From Promethearchaeota archaeon (GTDB lineage: Archaea > Asgardarchaeota > Lokiarchaeia > Sigyniarchaeales > SOKP01): a DNA stretch of 64,000 nucleotides. The notes under the pieces are model-generated. The model was not told the origin of the DNA. It searched no databases and saw only the letters and a list, made by a program, of their open reading frames with translations. This document shows positions 1-16,308 of the stretch, in pieces (within the stretch, counting starts at the first letter, position 1; each line of letters begins with the position of its first letter). Position numbers and translations under genes: made by a program. Where the stretch lies: assembly GCA_030603385.1 (NCBI GenBank), contig JAUVXW010000007.1, positions 32,001 to 96,000 on the forward strand. The letters are read 5' to 3'.

Positions 1-3000
1 TCCACTGATTTCAATAAGTTTACCATTCAAAACGGTGCTCAAATTGTATTTAGACCTGTATTTCGCACTCCCTCTGAATTTCAAGGATTTTATTATCAAG
101 ATGGTTATCCAACTATACAGTTAGTAGAGTGGAATTCAAATGATGTTAAGGATGGATTTCTTGAGGTGGAATTGGATAGTAAAATTATTTCAGAAAATCA
201 GAGTGTTTATGTATTCAATGATTTAATGGAAAACATGTATGAAGCTACTGAAGTTAATGTTGAAACAGAAGAACATGAATATGATGGATCTACAGAAAAA
301 TTTAGTTTAGAATTCAATACTATTACAATTCCTGAGGTGTTTCTGGATACAAATGGAAACACTATAAAAATGAGAGATGGAGATATTCTATTTTTAAAAT
401 ATAAGGCGTTTTTGGAGGCTTCGATTGGTATCACTGTTGAGGATATGGTGCTTCAAAGGAAACCATACTTTGAAAATTATGAAACAAATAGATATGATAT
501 TCCTATTGCAGAAATTTCATTACTGGGTGTAAATGTTGATGGAAATAATTATTCAATTGATGATGTTTTTGAAAATAGAGAGAAGTTAGTAGCTTGGGAG
601 ACATCGTTAGATATAACGCCATTTGAATCTGAATTAGAAAATACCTATAAACAACAAGTATTTAATATTAGTTTTGCAGATATTAAGCCTGAGTTCAAGA
701 AATTAGACGAAAAAAATATTGAGAATTGCTATGTCACCGACATCATGATTACATCGAACGACCCGAGATATGAGATCGTTGTAGATTCATTTTTTATTTT
801 TGAATTTGACGAGAATGCTAACATCTATGATTCTGATATTTTTGAAATCTATCCAAATAACCACATGGAAACTTTCTATTTTGGAAATTATTCGGATATT
901 TATAGTAATTCAGTAATCCTTAATACCAGTGAATTCTTACCAATTTATCAAGGGATTGAATCTGTAGACGAGACCTATTATTTTGAGGTATTTGATAATT
1001 TAGATAATTGGTACTATTTTGGCGAGCATCTAATCGGAGAAGAGATATCTTCTGGGGTTTATAATATAACTTGGAATCTTCAATACTGCCAAGAATATTA
1101 TTATGCATATATCAATCAATATGAAGATCTTTCTGAACTCTATGACTATTATAATCCGCATATTGACAAACTTAGGTATCTCTATTTAACTTGGGCTGAT
1201 AAAAACGCTTGGAACGAATGGCAGACCATCGAGCAAGCAAATGTAAATATCAGCACCTTAGATATCACATTCGAATGGTGTGATGAAACGCCAGAAGAAT
1301 ATGAATCGGTTGTATATAACCAAACTTTAGACGAATTTGAAGCACGACATATTGCAGTTGAGCCCATATACCCATATGATTCAAGTCGCAAAACCGATAT
1401 TTTTGAGTTGTCGCAAGACTATAGCAACGCCCAAGACCTGGATATTTACAAGATCACGGGATACTTTTTCAACGAAACTGTGAAAAATTTTGATCCAAGT
1501 ATATCAAATATTCAACTTGATAAAAAATCGATTGAAATTTCCGCCCCTAGTGGCTTTAATTTAGATAATTTTGAGAAAATTATCGTATATCTGAACTTTA
1601 CTGAGGGTGCCTATTCAGATTATACACAATTTAGACTCCTTCAAAATGCTATTGATAACCATCCAGAAGCACCATCATGGACTAAAAATGACTCGATATA
1701 TATTGATTTTGAGTATACCGATATTGATTATTTCCTCCTCCTTGAAGATTATGCGGTTGGTTCTGAAGATTCAATGTTTGAATATTTTGAATATGTTAGA
1801 AATGACAAATTCGTTTCATTCGATTATTCATTCAGTATGCTAGAAGAAATTGATAACTTTGATTCATTTACAGAAGTTAATGATCCTTCTTCTGTTTTAG
1901 AGCTATACGATTTTGATTTAGATGCCAATCATGAACTTGTTATCCAAAAAGATGATGTCTCAAATGATGGAGTGTTTGATTCATTTAAATATGGGGCTTT
2001 AAATCCAGCAGGAGAGATTTCTTTCCATACACTTGTTCAAGAGGCTAGTTCAGTACAAGTCTATAAAGACCAAAGCGTAGATTACAGCGTAAGTGAAGGT
2101 TATCAAATAAACTGGAAGGATATATGGCGCAAATACTATATTTTTGCCCGACGCTATCTTACTACATACACTACAGTTACTAATACAATAAGTTCAGCGG
2201 GTAAATTAATTCAAAAGGATCTTGATGCTGATGGGATCCCCGATAAGGAGATTTTCTTTAGAACAAGCTTTTCAATTACCGAAGTTATAACCGTAACTAA
2301 TGAAACGACTCACTTACATTTCAAACCTACATGTCATAACCCTGGTGGCAAGAGGCATGACGGTTATCTCACTGAGTTGCGAAACTCGACTACAATATAT
2401 ACAGATCAATCTGTATCATTTATGTTTAAGGATTTTGAAGGAGAAGAAGCCGTTTCTATACGTCTTTATGAAGATATATTCCCAAACGAGTTATCCGAGG
2501 CGTATAATTTAGAAAATAACCTCTATTCAATTACTAATGATCAAAATGACGAAGATCCCGATAATGACATAACAATTGATTCACCCGCACTTGAGGAGCT
2601 TCTTTCGCTTTCACATGATACTGATCCAGTTTCGGCTATCTTTGATCAAGTATCTATATATGAAAATGATGAATTCGATACAGAAAACATATTAGCAGTC
2701 AATAAGTCGTTAACAGCTTCAGGTATGTATAATGCAATTACAGGATTAGGTTCACAAGGTAGTGAACATGAGTTCTCGGTTAGCGTTATCGAGGTTAAAC
2801 CAAACGAAGGGGTATATTATGATATCAATACTCGATTCGGGCCTCAAAAAATTGAAGGTTCATATTATTACTACGATGAGAACAATGATGGACGGTACAG
2901 TACTATATTTGTTACAGATTCAAATGATAATATCATTGGTATTGGTTTCGATAATGATAAAAATCTAATTTTCGAGCCTAACAGCAGACAATTCGTAGAA

Positions 3001-6000
3001 AAACATATAATTAAGGGTGGGGCATTTGGTTGGAAGAAATATGACTACCTTACCGGTGAAGAATACTATGTAGTTGAGAATTATATTAAAAATAAGCTTG
3101 TGTTCTTCCAAGATGAAGATCGATATGAGGGATATTTCTTAGAACCGACTCTTAGTGATTCGCTATTTGACATCTGGAAAATGCAATATAATGCAGGATC
3201 CAGCAAGTTAATAAAGGAACAAATGTCAATTACCTCCCATCAATTCCTTTCATCAATAACACCCAGTAAGATAATTGGAGATATCGCTTGGCAAATAAAA
3301 GCCCAAACAATCTCGGCTGTAGTTGGAGGAGTTCTTGCTGGAATTGTTTCAATTTTTACAGCAGGTGCTGGAGCTAAGATTGCATATTATGTTGGCCATT
3401 TCATTACTTATGCAATTTGCAATGCAATCCATTCATATATACAAGAAAGAGACCAAAACTATTACATTCGCTCTCAGACTTTTCACAATGTCAATTATGA
3501 AGGCGAAGTGAAATTATCTGATAAACTAATGAAAGATCGCTATTTTGGCGATATGATGACTGATGCCTTGTTAGATAGTGGCAGTGGAGTATATGCCCCT
3601 GTAAGGGCTGAAACCGATAAACACGCGTATTCTGGTGAAGTTGTCCTTGCCCCTCGCGGCAAATCAAAGACTTCTCTAAGTATAACGCTTGATGTTTCAT
3701 TTAAGCATTTAGCTTTGGATTATTCTCAACAAACTCGTGGTTATTTCACATATTCTGATCTTGACGATCCTCGATTTATTTCGTTCTATCACGAGGGTAA
3801 TGAGGTTTTCATAATTCCGAGAAACGATAAGAGTAAGTATATGAGTAATTCAATTATGTATTTAGAAGATACGGTCCACAACACGACTATAGCGAATGAT
3901 GATACCCATTATGATAGCATTACTCCTTATATGGTTTATGGCGATGGCACGTTTGTTCCAGTACTTCAATTTGCCGATTCGGAAGGAGCTATCCCAGTTC
4001 CCGAATTCTACGACGAGTATCCAATTTTCTTATCCCCAGAACATTACGAGCTTATAAGCGAAGAATATCATTCAATCTATAAGATCTACGATGGTATTTC
4101 CAATACCATCCAGCTTATACCCGATTATAGTACTCATACTTTACATTCTGATATCGTATCATTTGACGCATATCTCTCTGATGGACAAGGTACTGAAATT
4201 CCCATTGGAAATTATAAGAACTCTGATAGTTATGAGTCCTTTACCTTTAACAGCACTTCAGGGAAAGTAGTTCTATCACCCCAACAAGTAAATCATTTAG
4301 ATGATTATTTAGACAACTATGAAGGTGATGCATATATTGTCCTTGAGTTTTTCATTGAGAAATATAGATCAGTTGATGATTTAAGAGATCTTACCGCCGA
4401 AGAAGTGGAGAACATTGCAACCATGCAATCTGCTCACGCTAATATCTTAGAATATATGTATCAGCATACCATAGCCACGAAGACTCAGCAAAAGTTAAGC
4501 GAAGCAGCATACACGGTACTTGTGACCGTTATAAGCACACTACCTTTTGCAATAGCTGGTGCTTTTAGTAAAGGATTGATACAATTACCTAAAATGGTTA
4601 TATTCGAGACGTTTGAAGAATTGTTCATTGATCCATGGATCGAATCGTATGTTTCTGGTTATGCAGAAGAACATGGATGGAGCACATTAGGAAAGTCACT
4701 TGCCGTAAGCTTTGCTGAAAGTAGCAGAGAGACATTTGGAAGCACGATATCCAGAGGACTTAAACAAGTTTTCTCGATAAATCAACAAGCTTCACAGAGT
4801 ATTAATTCAGAATCACAATCGCAAGCTCAATCAGTACAGTCGGCAAGTCAGCTAAAAGCAGATCGTAAATCAGCAACACTTCAATCGGTTTCTCAAATAG
4901 CATTATCGACAATCATACTCTTTGCGGGCTTTATATCACCAATTGCTGTCATATTTGGCACTTATGCCACTCAAGTTGGAATGGGTGTTATGTCGACAGT
5001 TAAAGAAGTTCGATACAAGCATTTGCTTAATAAGATTATTGACTCATATTCAGAAGCCAATGTACAGGATCTTTTAAGCATACTTGCCCCATCAAAAGTA
5101 TCTGATGCACAGACCAACTTAGTTCATAACGAATTAAGCCCTATAATAAGTAAAGAGCATAGTTTAATTACTGATGAGCAGAAGAATAAAGGTAAATCTG
5201 AAAATTTACTACAAAAAACTTTTGCGTGGGTAAAACAACATAAGAAACAAATTGCAATGTATGCCGGAGTTGCCATTACTGGATTTCTTGCCTCTCAAGG
5301 TATTAATGCTCTTTTTTCTGATTCTATGTTTGGAAGTCTTGCTGGTAGTGTTACCAGCATGGGACTCGGTACAATTGGGATGGTTAAACAAGAGTCTACT
5401 TCTGATAAAAATACCAAAAAGGTTAAGATCCAACAGACTCTAGACGGTAAATCCTTACTTCCTTCTAAAGTAGATAGAATAATTTCAAGAGAATTTGGAG
5501 GAAAAAAACATTATACTCAGGAATATATGAAAAATCTTTGGAAATTAGGTAAAACTGATGGGAAGGATGGTAATTACATTTTTGGTATGATTTATCAGTG
5601 GACTCATGAGAAAAGCGGTAAAGTTTATGTATATCCAGGAAGAACGGAAAGGCGTAGAGGTACTCCAGATTATCGACCATATTCATCCATTTCTGTAAGG
5701 TTTGATGAGGAAATTAGGACCGCTATTGAGAGCAAAATAGGAGAATTACAGAGAAGGAAATGTAAAATGTATTACGATATGCGACTAGTATTTGATAGTG
5801 CTGGTAAAGGTCAAAAAGGTATTAATGCAATTATAAAGAATTTTAAGCTCGAAATTGTGGAATTGCAAGTAATGTCAGAAACTTATGAGAAAGATAAAAT
5901 AATAATTGAACAGCTTGAAGATTATTGGTCGGATGTGGCAATTTCGAAGGGCTATGAATTATACACTAAAGCAGGTGGTAGAATTGGAGCCCATGTTTCA

Positions 6001-6702
6001 GAGCTAAAGGGAGCACACGGTAGAAAAGCTGCTCACAAAAAAGTTAGGGATATGATACGACACGGATTTTCTAAAAAAGATATTGCTCAATATTTCGAGA
6101 TGCCTTGGAGTCCCATAACTCACGGTTCAATGGCTCTTAATTATTTACTTCGTGAGGCTTTAGACGGTAAATCTTACACTAAGGTAAGAAACGAAGAGAT
6201 TAGTTCAGAAATTCTAGACCTTATAGATAATGGAGTCCTCACAATTCCAGATCTTGCTTCATATTTTAAGGGTATGACTCCCAAAGATATTTTTAATTTT
6301 TTACGAACCAGACATTTTCCACAAGGAAACTTATATCTTAATGGATTGATTAGTTCTGCAATCTTTAAGCTAAAGCAAGATAAAGTTTTCGACAAATATG
6401 ATCCTGTATTCACATATCACGATATATTAAATGAATTAGGTATAAGAACTGGAGATCTTTTGCTTACTGAATATATGAAAAGAGAAATGAAGACTATAAC
6501 TAAAATCACAGAAGATGATCTAATCTCTTGGTTAAAACCTTATGCTAGAATGCTAATTAAGAATTCCAATAGTGCTTCTGAATTGTTAGACTTACTAAAT
6601 TGGGACGAAGGTTTGACAGAAGATTATAGGGTCCATAAGTTGTTTGGGATGGATTTTAAACAAGCTAAGATGACTTTTACTAGTGGGGTTCTGAATAAAT
6701 AA
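1..6702 (+). CDS. Giant multidomain protein (5'-truncated): acidic Ca-binding-like region, hydrophobic helices, C-terminal GIY-YIG-like nuclease/HTH; candidate polymorphic toxin
   Basis: Frame is open from base 1, so GTG 166 is not the true start. DxDxDG-like motifs (DLDADGIPD, DENNDGRY), Gly/Ala-rich hydrophobic segments, and a basic C-terminus with GMIYQW...GKVYVYPGRT and LEDYW...GY...AGG. Confidence 0.6.
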   Translation, partial: STDFNKFTIQNGAQIVFRPVFRTPSEFQGFYYQDGYPTIQLVEWNSNDVKDGFLEVELDSKIISENQSVYVFNDLMENMYEATEVNVETEEHEYDGSTEKFSLEFNTITIPEVFLDTNGNTIKMRDGDILFLKYKAFLEASIGITVEDMVLQRKPYFENYETNRYDIPIAEISLLGVNVDGNNYSIDDVFENREKLVAWETSLDITPFESELENTYKQQVFNISFADIKPEFKKLDEKNIENCYVTDIMITSNDPRYEIVVDSFFIFEFDENANIYDSDIFEIYPNNHMETFYFGNYSDIYSNSVILNTSEFLPIYQGIESVDETYYFEVFDNLDNWYYFGEHLIGEEISSGVYNITWNLQYCQEYYYAYINQYEDLSELYDYYNPHIDKLRYLYLTWADKNAWNEWQTIEQANVNISTLDITFEWCDETPEEYESVVYNQTLDEFEARHIAVEPIYPYDSSRKTDIFELSQDYSNAQDLDIYKITGYFFNETVKNFDPSISNIQLDKKSIEISAPSGFNLDNFEKIIVYLNFTEGAYSDYTQFRLLQNAIDNHPEAPSWTKNDSIYIDFEYTDIDYFLLLEDYAVGSEDSMFEYFEYVRNDKFVSFDYSFSMLEEIDNFDSFTEVNDPSSVLELYDFDLDANHELVIQKDDVSNDGVFDSFKYGALNPAGEISFHTLVQEASSVQVYKDQSVDYSVSEGYQINWKDIWRKYYIFARRYLTTYTTVTNTISSAGKLIQKDLDADGIPDKEIFFRTSFSITEVITVTNETTHLHFKPTCHNPGGKRHDGYLTELRNSTTIYTDQSVSFMFKDFEGEEAVSIRLYEDIFPNELSEAYNLENNLYSITNDQNDEDPDNDITIDSPALEELLSLSHDTDPVSAIFDQVSIYENDEFDTENILAVNKSLTASGMYNAITGLGSQGSEHEFSVSVIEVKPNEGVYYDINTRFGPQKIEGSYYYYDENNDGRYSTIFVTDSNDNIIGIGFDNDKNLIFEPNSRQFVEKHIIKGGAFGWKKYDYLTGEEYYVVENYIKNKLVFFQDEDRYEGYFLEPTLSDSLFDIWKMQYNAGSSKLIKEQMSITSHQFLSSITPSKIIGDIAWQIKAQTISAVVGGVLAGIVSIFTAGAGAKIAYYVGHFITYAICNAIHSYIQERDQNYYIRSQTFHNVNYEGEVKLSDKLMKDRYFGDMMTDALLDSGSGVYAPVRAETDKHAYSGEVVLAPRGKSKTSLSITLDVSFKHLALDYSQQTRGYFTYSDLDDPRFISFYHEGNEVFIIPRNDKSKYMSNSIMYLEDTVHNTTIANDDTHYDSITPYMVYGDGTFVPVLQFADSEGAIPVPEFYDEYPIFLSPEHYELISEEYHSIYKIYDGISNTIQLIPDYSTHTLHSDIVSFDAYLSDGQGTEIPIGNYKNSDSYESFTFNSTSGKVVLSPQQVNHLDDYLDNYEGDAYIVLEFFIEKYRSVDDLRDLTAEEVENIATMQSAHANILEYMYQHTIATKTQQKLSEAAYTVLVTVISTLPFAIAGAFSKGLIQLPKMVIFETFEELFIDPWIESYVSGYAEEHGWSTLGKSLAVSFAESSRETFGSTISRGLKQVFSINQQASQSINSESQSQAQSVQSASQLKADRKSATLQSVSQIALSTIILFAGFISPIAVIFGTYATQVGMGVMSTVKEVRYKHLLNKIIDSYSEANVQDLLSILAPSKVSDAQTNLVHNELSPIISKEHSLITDEQKNKGKSENLLQKTFAWVKQHKKQIAMYAGVAITGFLASQGINALFSDSMFGSLAGSVTSMGLGTIGMVKQESTSDKNTKKVKIQQTLDGKSLLPSKVDRIISREFGGKKHYTQEYMKNLWKLGKTDGKDGNYIFGMIYQWTHEKSGKVYVYPGRTERRRGTPDYRPYSSISVRFDEEIRTAIESKIGELQRRKCKMYYDMRLVFDSAGKGQKGINAIIKNFKLEIVELQVMSETYEKDKIIIEQLEDYWSDVAISKGYELYTKAGGRIGAHVSELKGAHGRKAAHKKVRDMIRHGFSKKDIAQYFEMPWSPITHGSMALNYLLREALDGKSYTKVRNEEISSEILDLIDNGVLTIPDLASYFKGMTPKDIFNFLRTRHFPQGNLYLNGLISSAIFKLKQDKVFDKYDPVFTYHDILNELGIRTGDLLLTEYMKREMKTITKITEDDLISWLKPYARMLIKNSNSASELLDLLNWDEGLTEDYRVHKLFGMDFKQAKMTFTSGVLNK

Positions 6703-6807
6703 TCAATAAATCCCCTCTTATATTATGTTATATAAAACTTGCTTACTGTCAAGAGATTTAAATAATAATGATGATACAATCTTAATAGGAATACGGTAAT
6801 AAATATT

Positions 6808-7668
6808 ATGGCAAGGAGCGATGTAGGTATACTAGAAGATGACGAAGAGGCTGATGTAGCAGGATTTATGTTAGAAGCTTGTGGAATAGACTCTCCCGAT
6901 TTTTATCATAATAAAAGAATTTTAACTAGGGAGAATTTTGAAAAAAATTATAAATTCTTCGTCAAAATGGCAGAAAACCGTGGCTCGAGAAGAGCCTCAT
7001 ACTTTGTAATTGGTTATTTTGCCCTAATAACTGGGGGAAAAATAACTGAAGAACTTCGAAAAAAAATATTAGAGATAGCGAAATGGGAACACGAGGAGGG
7101 ATATTGGCAAGATAAGGAGTTTGCTCTCATGAGAAAGATTTACCTCGAAGACTTTCGAGAGAAAATTCGTATTCATAAAGCCGGAACAAAGCTACATCCC
7201 GCAATCTTTAAGTATAGCGGGAAGGACATGTCTGAATCAAGAGTCCTTATTGGTGTTAATAATATACTGAGTCTTTATGAAATTAATGACATAAAACATG
7301 TGAATTTAGATGGGTGGAATTTAACTTCTATTCCACATGAAATTTTTGAGCTTCAAAATCTTAAGTCATTAAGTTTAGAGTTTAATCAAATATCAGACAT
7401 TGATGATGAGATAACAAACTTAACAAAATTAAAGCATCTTTTTTTAGATTATAATCAACTTAAGTCAATTCCTGAGTCATTTGGAAAATTAGCATCACTT
7501 AAAAGCTTAAGTATCATACATAATAATGTAAATAGGTTACCAATATCATTGAAGAATCTAAAACACTTAAAGCATATTTATGTAAGAGGAACAGGAATAA
7601 ACCAAGCACCAAAGTTCCTTAAAGGCTCTAAGCTTGAACCTCTTAACGAGACAATTTACCTTAAATAA
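6808..7668 (+). CDS. DUF4259-like N-terminal domain plus leucine-rich repeats; candidate immunity protein
   Basis: Clear LxxLxLxxNxL repeats (LKSLSLEFNQI, LKHLFLDYNQL, LKSLSIIHNNV). The N-terminus MARSDVGILEDDEEADV resembles the DUF4259 start. Confidence 0.7.
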   Translation: MARSDVGILEDDEEADVAGFMLEACGIDSPDFYHNKRILTRENFEKNYKFFVKMAENRGSRRASYFVIGYFALITGGKITEELRKKILEIAKWEHEEGYWQDKEFALMRKIYLEDFREKIRIHKAGTKLHPAIFKYSGKDMSESRVLIGVNNILSLYEINDIKHVNLDGWNLTSIPHEIFELQNLKSLSLEFNQISDIDDEITNLTKLKHLFLDYNQLKSIPESFGKLASLKSLSIIHNNVNRLPISLKNLKHLKHIYVRGTGINQAPKFLKGSKLEPLNETIYLK

Positions 7669-8034: not shown

Positions 8035-8877
8035 ATGAAAAAAATGAAAAATCTAAAAAAAATCACATATATTATTGTTTCATTAATTCTTCTCCAATTT
8101 TTATTTATCTTCTCAGCTCCAACAGTAAGAGCAGACACAAGTGTTCCTGACAATTTCAATCAAAACTTAGATCTAAATAGAATATATATCTATAATGTAA
8201 CTGCATTTAATACTACAAAACCTCTGGAATGGGTAGATGTGGATTGGATGGCACCCACAAAAGGATTTGTGAATGTAACACCTGGAGGACAGATGAAGAT
8301 AAATCTTACTGGTTTTTACGAAAAAGATCCCAACGATTTCTTTAACGTCTTTGAAAGTCCAATGCCCTATATGAATATCGAGTTTTTAGAAAATAGGTCA
8401 GGTATATTATTTACAAATACTACACTATATAATGTTTCAAATGGAGAAGCAGCTCAAAATTTACTTCTTGGTTATAATAGTTTTAAATCAGGATTTCTAA
8501 TTCCAATTTCTGATTTCAACAATTTGACGCAACAAGCGTACGCACAGGATGAGCCACCTTTCATGAATGCAACAGTTTCTGTCATAGAAACGTCAAAGAC
8601 GATTTCTTTTGATTTTAAACAAAAAACTTTCTTACAACAAAAAACCAATTGTATCTACGATAAGGCTTCTGGATTGCTTATTTATACGAATACTAGTTTT
8701 GGGAATTATACTCTTGAGATGACTTTAATTAATCTTCCAAGTTTTCCTTCTGATTCGTTCTCAATACCATCATTCCATTTATTAATAGTAATAACGATCC
8801 TAGGTACAACAATATTAATCAATATCTGCCTAAAAAAAATAAAACTTACTAAGAAGTATTCTAAATTTAGAAATTAA
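8035..8877 (+). CDS. Secreted/surface protein with C-terminal membrane anchor
   Basis: Signal peptide, many NxS/T sequons, C-terminal hydrophobic helix plus basic tail. Confidence 0.7.
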   Translation: MKKMKNLKKITYIIVSLILLQFLFIFSAPTVRADTSVPDNFNQNLDLNRIYIYNVTAFNTTKPLEWVDVDWMAPTKGFVNVTPGGQMKINLTGFYEKDPNDFFNVFESPMPYMNIEFLENRSGILFTNTTLYNVSNGEAAQNLLLGYNSFKSGFLIPISDFNNLTQQAYAQDEPPFMNATVSVIETSKTISFDFKQKTFLQQKTNCIYDKASGLLIYTNTSFGNYTLEMTLINLPSFPSDSFSIPSFHLLIVITILGTTILINICLKKIKLTKKYSKFRN

Positions 8878-9363: not shown

Positions 9364-9798
9364 TTAATAATTTATATCATTGGTTTGGATTTTCTTTAAT
9401 AGAGGTTCTATATCCCTGAAAGATTTTCTAATTTTATGAAAATAATATCCTAATTTATATCCTTTTTTACATCTTGTAAATAACATAAAATCATTATCAG
9501 CATCACCTACTAATATAATTGTATACCCCTTAGCACCTCTGATAACTGCATCTCTAAGCTCACCTTGTTGTAAACTTTGGCTAATCTTTTCCCCAAGAGA
9601 AATCAATGTAGCTGGACTTGCACTATAGATATCCCCAACAACATCAGTAGTTTCTGAACTAGCAATACGTAATCCATTTTTTGAAACAATAGCAGTTCCT
9701 TCTAAATCAGTAGAACTTTCTAATTGTTCTAAGGCTTTCATTAACTCATCTAAAATTTGTTGGCTGATTTCAAATTCAGATTCTTTAACTTTTTCCAA
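9364..9798 (-). CDS. Roadblock/LC7 (MglB-like) protein
   Basis: LEGTAIVSKNGLRIAS...GELRDAVIRGAKGYTII roadblock pattern. Confidence 0.85.
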   Translation of the reverse strand: MEKVKESEFEISQQILDELMKALEQLESSTDLEGTAIVSKNGLRIASSETTDVVGDIYSASPATLISLGEKISQSLQQGELRDAVIRGAKGYTIILVGDADNDFMLFTRCKKGYKLGYYFHKIRKSFRDIEPLLKKIQTNDINY

Positions 9799-9838
9799 TT
9801 TTAACTCCTCTAATATAATTATAATGATTTTTAAGAAT

Positions 9839-11257
9839 TTAAATCTTTTTTAGATGAAAACTTCTTAACTCTTTTAGATAAACGGGATCTCCCTTTTTTA
9901 CTTCCATTTCATTAGTTTCTATTCCCACAATAACATTTCCTTTAGTACCAAACGTATTTAAAACTCTTGTAAAAGGATGTTCCAACTTTTTGTCAACAAT
10001 CTTTTTAGCACCTATAACACTTTGAGCTAATCCTGTACAAATTATACCTTGAGAATGTTCTGGGTTCTTAATAGTTCCCTTTTTAACTTTATATTTATAA
10101 AAAAGTGGAGGATCTTTATGAATTTTAAATATTTTTGCTGATCCTAAGATTCTAAGAGCTGTAGGGGGTAAATCTAATCGGCTTATAAGCATTATTGTTT
10201 TTTCTTTTCTTATTAAAACCTTTTCTTTCAATATCATTAACGCATTAAATCCATTTTCTTTATTCGAAACAGTAAATTGAATTCTTTTACGATCTTCCTC
10301 ATAATAAGGATAAATATTGCCTACAGTAGTCAACATACCGATCGTAATGTGAACTTGAGTTCCAAAATGAGTTTTTGGTTTGAAGAGTTTATTATTATTT
10401 ACATTTATTTCAATAACATCACAATATTCAAAAGCATCTGGGTTGTTTGTTGCATAACAACCACGATAGATTTTATTCACATCTACCCCTTTTACATTAA
10501 TTCCTATTCGATCACCTGCTTTCGCAGAATCAACATTTTGATGGAAAATTTGAATACTTTTAACGCGACCTGAAGATTTTATTGGTAAAATATCTAAGTT
10601 TTGATTTAATCTTAATTTGCCACTTAGTAATGTTCCTGTCAATACTGCTCCTATACCTTTGATTGGAAAATGATGATCTACAGGAATTATAACATCTCCT
10701 CCAGTATCCCTTTTTAATTCTATAGAATTTATTATGTCTAAAATTCCATGTTTTAATTCCTTAAAACCGGTATTAGTTTTTGCAGAAACGGGATATACTG
10801 GTATATTTGAACCATAAGATGTAGTTTTAAAAAAATTCCTTGTCTTTTCTATTTCATCATTAATATTTCCAGAAAATAGATCAATTTTATTAAGAATTAC
10901 AATTATTTTACTAATTCCAAGCGATTCAACCATAATAATATGCTCTCCAGTTTGCACTTGAGGACCTTTATTTATATCAATAACTATTAAAGCACAATCA
11001 ATGATTTCCACAGATGAGGCACTAATTTTAATTAGATCGGCATGTCCAGGACCATCCACGAGTGTAATAAGATAATCGTTAAGTATAAAACTAGTAAAAC
11101 CTATATCTATTGTAATCCCTCTTTCTTTACTTTGAGGATGAGCATCAATACCTGCTGTTGATATAATTTCACTAAGAACTTCTGCAATTGCCGTTTTCCC
11201 AGAATCTATATGACCAAATAATCCAATATGTACAGGAATTTTCTTAGTAATATCCAT
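9839..11257 (-). CDS. selB: Selenocysteine-specific elongation factor SelB
   Basis: GHIDSGKT, ERGITIDIGF, DGPGHADL, QTGEH and NKID motifs; 472 aa; close to tRNA-Sec and SepSecS. Confidence 0.93.
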   Translation of the reverse strand: MDITKKIPVHIGLFGHIDSGKTAIAEVLSEIISTAGIDAHPQSKERGITIDIGFTSFILNDYLITLVDGPGHADLIKISASSVEIIDCALIVIDINKGPQVQTGEHIIMVESLGISKIIVILNKIDLFSGNINDEIEKTRNFFKTTSYGSNIPVYPVSAKTNTGFKELKHGILDIINSIELKRDTGGDVIIPVDHHFPIKGIGAVLTGTLLSGKLRLNQNLDILPIKSSGRVKSIQIFHQNVDSAKAGDRIGINVKGVDVNKIYRGCYATNNPDAFEYCDVIEINVNNNKLFKPKTHFGTQVHITIGMLTTVGNIYPYYEEDRKRIQFTVSNKENGFNALMILKEKVLIRKEKTIMLISRLDLPPTALRILGSAKIFKIHKDPPLFYKYKVKKGTIKNPEHSQGIICTGLAQSVIGAKKIVDKKLEHPFTRVLNTFGTKGNVIVGIETNEMEVKKGDPVYLKELRSFHLKKI

Positions 11258-16215: not shown

Positions 16216-16308
16216 GGCCCTTGACGGTTAGAGTGGTCTCTGACACTGGGCTTCAAACCCAGTTATCCTGCGGAGGGATAGGGGTTCGATTCCCCTCGAG
16301 GGCCGCCA
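16216..16308 (+). tRNA. selC: tRNA-Sec (UCA)
   Basis: 9-bp acceptor GGCCCTTGA/TCGAGGGCC, 7-bp D stem, ACTGGG-CT TCA AA-CCCAGT, long variable arm, 4-bp T stem, G73 and encoded CCA. Confidence 0.97.

Follow-up and report, generated by a model that had tools for sequence, protein, structure and literature searches.

A giant predicted surface protein with an exchangeable nuclease-like tail and a linked leucine-rich-repeat gene in a Promethearchaeota archaeon

The giant gene and its neighbour

We analysed a 64,000-nucleotide stretch of the genome of a Promethearchaeota archaeon (assembly GCA_030603385.1, 3.9 Mb; positions 32,001-96,000 of contig JAUVXW010000007.1, forward strand), which we call the window and label C41:32001-96000. 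The window opens inside a gene for a very large predicted surface protein (hereafter the giant), and this gene is followed at a short distance by a gene for a small leucine-rich-repeat (LRR) protein (hereafter the partner). At window positions 1-6702 on the plus strand there is an open frame of 2233 aa whose 5′ end is open, in agreement with the preliminary description of this DNA, which had reported a protein of more than 2230 aa with an LRR gene about 105 nt downstream. That description had also proposed retrieving the upstream contig, and doing so revealed a gene four times longer than its visible part. The first ATG after an in-frame stop lies at C41:11349, 20.6 kb upstream of the window, and the whole gene spans C41:11349-38702 (27.35 kb), encoding 9,117 aa, of which the window frame represents only the last quarter (full-protein residue = window residue + 6884). 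In DNA of 30-38% G+C, an uninterrupted frame of this length cannot be put down to chance.

Hydropathy analysis places four to five membrane helices near the N-terminus of the giant (aa 56-200). They are followed by an acidic ectodomain of ~7,800 aa, a Gly/Ala hydrophobic hairpin (H1/H2), ~350 further acidic residues, a module of two hydrophobic segments joined by a loop (H3-loop-H4), a linker, a second hairpin (H5/H6) and finally a basic tail (Table 1). The ectodomain contains 113 N-x-S/T sites (sequons), equivalent to 1.45 per 100 aa or 1.2 times expectation, which together with the hydropathy profile suggests that the giant is a membrane-anchored surface protein; no usable match to the ectodomain was found in Pfam, NCBIfam or the ESM Atlas, and PADLOC and PDB-sequence searches with the giant were likewise without a significant match. 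All three Gly/Ala clusters lie where the preliminary description had placed them, and the switch from acidic to basic sequence that it noted is evident in net charges of -577 for the ectodomain and +13 for the last 437 aa (K+R 16.5%). The DxDxDG-like loops that it mentioned are real, although few: two strict copies (nt 2218-2235 and 2875-2892) and one DxSxDG (1954-1971), compared with 0.46 expected from shuffled sequence. The H1/H2 hairpin is embedded in extracellular-looking acidic sequence with sequons on both sides, and could be a membrane dip or a buried core.

The partner has neither a signal peptide nor a membrane helix (maximum 19-aa hydropathy 0.91). It contains three sequons, and the observed/expected ratio of 0.96 for the partner family is cytoplasmic-like. 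Two earlier statements about this gene, that its product is acidic and that it is DUF4259-like, had to be abandoned: 40 D+E are balanced by 42 K+R, with only the N-terminal motif ILEDDEEADV being acidic, and neither the N-domain nor ten relatives match Pfam, PF14078 being absent genome-wide at E <= 10. Searches with the N-domain in Pfam, NCBIfam, PADLOC, PDB sequences and the ESM Atlas likewise returned nothing usable.

Table 1. Coordinates of the features of the giant and partner genes (window numbering)
Feature	Position	Strand	Remarks
End of giant gene	1..6702	+	last 2233 codons + stop of 9,117-aa gene
Distal acidic sequon-bearing ectodomain	1..3300	+	composition; three Ca-loop-like motifs
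Gly/Ala hairpin H1/H2	3301..3441	+	full aa 7985-8031; Kyte-Doolittle 19-aa mean 2.0
Acidic spacer, ectodomain-like	3442..4503	+	net charge -32; 2 sequons vs 2.5 expected
Conserved membrane module H3-loop-H4	4504..5001	+	full aa 8386-8551; homologues across family
Breakpoint zone	5008..5241	+	similarity with closest bodies stops here
Glycine-zipper-like hairpin H5/H6	5251..5385	+	full aa 8635-8679; Lys-rich flanks
Exchangeable tail cassette	5431..6699	+	begins at motif QQTLDGKSL; tail-family similarity, body-less copies included, starts here
GIY-YIG (URI) nuclease-like domain, predicted	5581..5973	+	AlphaFold2 model + PDB structural match
Three predicted helix-turn-helix (HTH) DNA-binding modules	6010-6210, 6307-6489, 6532-6699	+	structural matches (VIA), Z 4.6-5.3
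Archaeal TATA-box-like octamer TTTAAATA	6757..6764	+	44 nt before partner ATG; consensus match only
Partner gene, candidate immunity protein	6808..7668	+	286 aa; starts 105 nt past giant
Partner N-domain, family-specific	6808-7257	+	relatives
Partner leucine-rich repeats, about five	7270-7623	+	Pfam LRR_8 7e-16, aa 155-272

Tail and partner gene move as cassettes among giant genes

Of the 135 genomes in the taxonomic family, 31 encode homologues of the H3-loop-H4 module, whose loop carries the motif EELFIDPWIE and a Q/S-rich stretch; the longest frame containing one measures 20,619 aa. A paralogue in the same genome forms part of a 14,833-aa gene on contig C3; the bodies of the two giants are collinear (21-31% identity) and their tails are unrelated. 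Among the closest bodies, that of G224 is 45% identical to the present one over 966 aa, ending at full-protein residue 8554, and those of G170 and G177 are 32-36% identical, ending at residues 8580-8631, with no alignment beyond. Similarity is lost, then, within aa 8554-8631, just past H4. BLAST clustering of the last 450 aa of 38 fetched C-terminal regions gave 22 clusters. Conserved bodies with variable C-termini, which the preliminary description had suggested looking for, are accordingly what the homologues present (22 types in 38 genes), and an invariant C-terminus was not seen. The giant of G238 (12,880 aa) shares 62% identity with the C3 giant along 4,700 aa but ends in the tail type of the present gene, at 34% identity. 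Because the bodies lose similarity after H4, and because a C3-like body carries this tail, we conclude that tails are exchanged among body lineages at a fixed junction, marked in this tail family by the motif QxTLDGKSL. The H5/H6 hairpin is specific to this copy, being absent from G238 and G192, which share its tail type. The tail type itself occurs in seven of the 134 other genomes of the taxonomic family. A search through 1.84 billion representative proteins yielded just 43 relatives, and a related-loci search in a genome-contig collection returned no relative.

A homologue of the partner, comprising N-domain and LRR, adjoins the tail in all ten copies of at least 250 aa (G000, G182 at two loci, G238, G184, G177, G192 and three metagenome contigs). 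This linkage holds on C41-like bodies, on C3-like bodies and on body-less tails, so that the downstream gene co-varies with the tip, as had been proposed, across two body lineages; two short tail remnants likewise retain the partner. In addition, about eight close homologues of the partner are not accompanied by a tail. Partners are therefore sometimes tail-less whereas tails are never partner-less, which is the asymmetry expected of immunity genes. Tail and partner gene thus move as cassettes among giant genes, and the strictness of the genomic linkage suggests that the LRR partner neutralises this tail type. Some body-less copies are found at a locus syntenic with the present one, where the LRR gene and the gene that follows it, encoding a 280-aa anchored glycoprotein, are conserved and the giant is represented by the tail alone in G182, by a 98-aa remnant in G196 and by nothing in G270. 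Since the syntenic locus keeps both of these genes while the giant is reduced, these copies look like deletion remnants.

Searches of Pfam, NCBIfam and PDB sequences with the tail gave nothing significant. An AlphaFold2 model built from the single sequence reached a predicted local distance difference test score (pLDDT) of 40, and one built with a 26-sequence alignment, in which 25 relatives had been added, reached 80. The top structural match of this model among 48,161 PDB chains is the catalytic domain of I-TevI (1ln0_A), with a moderate Z of 6.0 and a root-mean-square deviation of 3.1 Å over 89 of 92 residues (model residues 68-198). A second GIY-YIG enzyme, T4 EndoII (2wsh_A), was recovered at Z 4.8, and the remaining matches are all HTH DNA-binding domains (NarL/DosR/LuxR-type, sigma-70 region 4 and TetR-type), located over three separate stretches. 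Pfam HTH_23 is matched by seven of the 26 tail-family members (best 1e-4), and Foldseek with the whole 440-aa tail model found no match at E <= 0.001. In the tail-family alignment most members contain the GIY, Y[IV]G, Arg, Glu and YN motifs in the order and spacing of I-TevI, and the family profile weakly matches 1ln0_A near the Glu and Asn positions. Alignment with five bona fide GIY-YIG domains by hhalign gave P 0.029 in the expected register, and PF01541 gave two weak matches among the 26 tail relatives, the better at 0.11. Elsewhere in the protein family, the Pfam GIY-YIG cut-off is reached or exceeded by two tail types unrelated to this one; phmmer searches of the PDB with three tail types other than the present one found no match. 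The moderate Z is supported by the family motifs, the weak profile match and the two other GIY-YIG tails, all of which agree with it. As modelled, the tail consists of a GIY-YIG nuclease fold and three HTH modules, which bears out the nuclease tip of the preliminary description at the level of predicted fold, and cutting activity is a plausible corollary.

A GIY-YIG domain accompanied by DNA-binding modules is also the architecture of I-TevI, and the cassette might accordingly be selfish: a homing-endonuclease-like gene would have inserted itself, in frame, into the 3′ end of a gene for a surface protein, to which it contributes nothing. Free-standing tail copies and an integrase gene upstream of the giant are both in keeping with such an origin. 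It would not explain, however, why 22 unrelated tails occur at one junction, why the LRR partner is obligatory or why the loss of sequons described below extends over the conserved module, and the free-standing copies look 5′-truncated, like remnants at the syntenic locus. We regard a selfish cassette as highly improbable. A plain homing endonuclease was considered and rejected, as it leaves the 22 tail types at one junction, the LRR partner and the purge of the module unexplained.

Several further features of these families were recorded. The partner N-domain belongs to a wider family (loci L028-L043, in several genomes) that is represented in 46 of the 134 other genomes; it occurs alone (127-175 aa), doubled (L028) or at the C-terminus of LRR-less proteins of ~400 aa, and three copies follow giants with other tail types. 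Residues 64-193 of the L073 tail (G225:C71) contain a ubiquitin-like domain (Pfam 8e-7) immediately before a canonical GIY-YIG domain. Ubiquitin is also matched by one relative of the present tail, and such a domain could be a processing or release element. Several family genes are interrupted (L092, L093 and L095, in G170 and G177): frames of 1,300-1,500 aa begin inside body homology and lack a start codon, and in L092 (G170:C6) a second long frame overlaps the 5′ end of the start-less one. These interruptions are frameshifts, arising from decay or from assembly error.

Sequon depletion and the destination of the tail

Archaeal N-glycosylation modifies N-x-S/T on the outer face of the membrane, and selection does not act against this motif in a domain that never leaves the cytoplasm. 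The gene for the STT3/AglB oligosaccharyltransferase is present in the genome. Representatives of the 22 tail clusters contain a single sequon where 120 are expected, compared with 114 occurrences of the reverse motif S/T-x-N (Poisson P about 1e-50); all 38 tails together likewise contain one (198 expected), and the library relatives of the present tail type contain two (37 expected). Across the family the depletion has a boundary at H3, with 15 sequons against 18 expected before it and 0 against 33 from H3 to the end of the module. In the present gene the final two sequons, at window aa 1294 and 1417, lie in the acidic spacer, and there is none in the 816 aa that follow. Observed/expected ratios from the same genome provide controls: 0.97 for open reading frames (ORFs) without a hydrophobic segment, 1.40 for ORFs with one, and 1.15-1.23 for the ectodomains of three giants. 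Because sequons are purged here and cytoplasmic ORFs are not so affected, everything from H3 onward appears to meet the glycosylation machinery and to be required to stay unmodified. We had initially preferred to view the giant as a receptor with a cytoplasmic tail, and this result reversed that preference. Glycan-free export argues for a part whose later task would be to enter or traverse another membrane and to function in a cytoplasm.

The purge bears on two alternatives to delivery. The first takes the giant to be an exported adhesin that degrades or captures extracellular DNA at the surface, to which the LRR gene would be linked but separate, or regulatory. Export is indicated by the purge, the tail has the predicted fold of a nuclease with DNA-binding modules, and the ectodomain is adhesin-like (acidic, with sequons and a few Ca-loop motifs). 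Yet extracellular enzymes have no evident need for total glycan avoidance, strict linkage with a cytoplasmic partner would be left unexplained, and neither the extreme diversity nor the exchange of tails would be expected of a nutritional enzyme; we consider a surface nuclease of this kind quite improbable.

The second alternative is that the system acts within the cell that makes it, the giant being a surface sensor or receptor and the tail a membrane-tethered cytoplasmic output, either nuclease or DNA-binding, that is restrained by the LRR protein. Virus attachment or envelope damage would then trigger abortive infection, or signalling by regulated proteolysis. Hydrophobic helices upstream of the tail, the Lys-rich flanks of H5/H6, a basic tail with three HTH modules and a partner without a signal peptide would all suit such an arrangement, and the degenerate catalytic motifs of this copy suit DNA binding better than cutting. 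Body-less tail and partner pairs are moreover found in defence-island contexts: the pair in G182 adjoins an AriA/AriB-like (PARIS-type) pair (L046, G182:C32, 3288-5654, minus strand), and the tail copy of G184 adjoins a type II methyltransferase-like gene. Against this, a cytoplasmic output is hard to reconcile with the near absence of sequons from the tails and its sharp onset at H3, when cytoplasmic ORFs of the same genome are close to expectation; the swapping of 22 unrelated outputs among bodies of one family is more typical of toxin cassettes; and PADLOC matches neither tail nor partner. In our estimation a cell-autonomous effector is unlikely.

We favour instead a polymorphic-toxin-like conflict system built on an archaeal scaffold that has so far gone undescribed, and hold this, with modest confidence, to be the probable explanation. 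A number of observations weigh against it. With regard to topology, one would normally expect the hydrophobic helices to halt translocation in the membrane of the producing cell itself, the Lys-rich flanks of H5/H6 look as if both ends of the hairpin were cytoplasmic, and the charge counts of family members disagree: K+R content favours the side before the last hydrophobic helix in 26 of 36 relatives and the side after it in five, while in a motif-anchored subset of nine relatives the bias is not significant and the flanks of H3 do not fit. Over all 9,117 aa, Pfam and NCBIfam identify no known secretion, pre-toxin, protease or repeat domain. With regard to the tail, the Z of the I-TevI match offers support and not proof, and PF01541 has no match to this copy at E <= 10. 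The present copy keeps the Tyr of GIY, the Arg (ISVRF) and the Glu (LED). Its counterpart of Y[IV]G reads YVYPG, with a 2-aa insert, and the conserved Asn is replaced by Thr; a 2-aa insert in this motif and the loss of the Asn are shared by its nearest relative. Because of this insert and the loss of Asn, the nuclease activity of this copy is uncertain and may be weakened or absent. With regard to the partner, the gene is convergent, on the opposite strand, in four of the ten substantial copies, and its sequence tracks the tail only loosely, the G238 partner being 71% identical where the tail is only 36% identical. At least 16 of the 38 family genes, with many tail types, are likewise followed by an LRR gene, which fits a versatile immunity scaffold but could also reflect a common role other than immunity.

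Under the polymorphic-toxin-like reading, the 9,117-aa protein would be held in the producer's membrane by its N-terminal helices and would display a ~7,800-aa acidic glycosylated stalk, as hydropathy and sequon content suggest. The last ~730 aa (H3-loop-H4, linker and exchangeable tail) would be exported free of N-glycans, in keeping with the purge. The GIY-YIG tail with its three HTH modules would be a DNA-cutting effector, a role proposed from the modelled fold. By analogy only, contact between cells might lead the Gly/Ala-rich module to enter the membrane of a neighbour and deliver the tail to the neighbour's cytoplasm; there, again by analogy, the tail would cut DNA. The cytoplasmic LRR protein would bind and neutralise this tail type, sparing producer and kin, as the genomic linkage leads us to propose. 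The layout resembles a cell-to-cell toxin with its antidote, and we infer toxicity, immunity and delivery from that layout. Stated in full, the family would constitute a so far undescribed machine of Loki-type Asgard archaea for passing proteins into neighbours, with N-terminally anchored stalks of 9,000-20,000 residues, a glycan-free C-terminal part of ~700-1,900 residues that crosses the target membrane, and tip-specific LRR antidotes; on the correctness of this fuller account we are evenly divided. If it is true, competition or kin recognition among the closest relatives of the eukaryotic ancestor takes place through giant surface filaments, and cargo the size of a folded domain crosses a foreign membrane without a known secretion apparatus. 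This would bear on how Asgard cells, whose life involves close physical partnerships, deal with their neighbours. The sequon purge offers a mark, easily computed, of the unglycosylated parts of archaeal surface proteins and could reveal other delivered domains, and tail and partner make up a compact candidate nuclease-inhibitor pair.

The surroundings of the two genes were also surveyed. Downstream of the partner, at window 8035-8877 (plus strand), is the gene for the 280-aa protein, which has a signal peptide and a C-terminal anchor as well as numerous N-x-S/T sites and matches no family in Pfam, NCBIfam or PADLOC; its synteny with the LRR gene extends to G182:C32, G196 and G270 and persists where no giant is left. 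A SelB-like archaeal elongation factor is encoded at 9364-11257 on the minus strand (TIGR00475 2.5e-69, just under the cut-off), adjoining a Roadblock/LC7 gene, and a tRNA-Sec gene lies 5 kb from it at 16216-16308 (plus strand), indicating selenocysteine machinery in this Asgard genome. Upstream of the giant, a tyrosine integrase (L001, 9869-10477, minus strand) is located ~0.9 kb ahead of the start, and C41:1-11300 further encodes a ParB_N protein and a PAPS-reductase-like protein; this region may be a mobile element or an island.

Comparison with known systems

Contact-dependent toxin delivery is well studied in bacteria. Archaeal polymorphic toxin systems have been predicted (Makarova et al. 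2019, cited in PMC8416519), and PMC8416519 also describes the VARTIG module of Thermococcales. Both concern surface proteins with hypervariable C-termini and variable downstream genes, which have been read in terms of conflict or of self/non-self recognition and are experimentally uncharacterised. In VARTIG, unlike the present family, the variable part is an Ig domain, and its distribution is limited to Thermococcales. Very large predicted proteins are a feature of Asgard archaea more generally: Heimdallarchaeia contain the giant twins Otus and Ephialtes of 'aloposons', and some giants lie in mobile elements (Wu et al. 2022, PMC8813620), while about 23 Asgard proteins of more than 5,000 aa have been listed (PMC11573180). 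The present protein resembles all of these in size, and here too an integrase lies close upstream. It differs from aloposons, in a comparison made by description and not by sequence, in having no tandem giant pair and no adjacent tRNA, and neither of those two papers describes exchangeable tips or partner genes. Classification as an aloposon was rejected, as there is a single giant, no tRNA is present in C41:1-11400 or at the 3′ end of the giant gene, and the upstream genes encode an integrase, ParB_N and PAPS-reductase-like proteins rather than MinD/ParA. Our literature search, which did not cover overlap with the Asgard data of Makarova et al. 2019, turned up no description of a system of this kind from Asgard archaea.

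The modelled tail is like I-TevI in having a GIY-YIG catalytic domain followed by DNA-binding modules that include HTH, with a shared register near Glu and YN. Unlike I-TevI, the domain forms the end of a 9,117-aa surface protein instead of being intron-encoded or free-standing and is always paired with an LRR gene, and the present copy has an altered YIG, lacks the Asn and falls below the Pfam threshold.

The closest parallels are with bacterial polymorphic toxins such as CdiA/CdiI, Rhs and MafB, which also combine a long conserved surface protein with many unrelated, recombining C-terminal tips, a junction of fixed position where similarity drops sharply, a small gene for a partner next to the tip and truncated tip and partner copies elsewhere in the genomes. 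These systems include Tox-URI tips and Imm-LRR immunity proteins (Zhang et al. 2012, PMC3482391), and the pairing of a predicted URI/GIY-YIG tip with an LRR partner recalls Tox-URI1/URI2 and Imm-LRR, the likeness to Imm-LRR lying in the leucine-rich repeats of a small protein encoded beside the tail. Of the RTX, contact-dependent inhibition (CDI) and Rhs layout seen by the preliminary description, the predicted toxin-type nuclease fold of the tip, the variable recombining C-termini and the adjacent, travelling partner stand. The domains of those classes do not: in the 9,117 aa, Pfam and NCBIfam identified no RTX, CDI, Rhs, trafficking or pre-toxin domain, no element of type II, V, VI or VII secretion systems (T2SS, T5SS, T6SS, T7SS) and no FHA, RHS, VENN, PT-TG or HINT element, and of the hallmarks of CDI neither the CdiB transporter nor TPS/FHA domains nor the VENN junction was found in these databases. 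Purging of N-glycosylation sites from the exported part has, to our knowledge, no bacterial counterpart. In contrast to the bacterial systems, the host is archaeal and has only one membrane, the anchor is formed by N-terminal membrane helices, the Gly/Ala-rich helices before the tip are without a described relative, the tip carries three predicted HTH modules and the partner is sometimes convergent. The resemblance to RTX, CDI and Rhs toxins is therefore best regarded as an analogy, and not as membership of any delivery class described so far.

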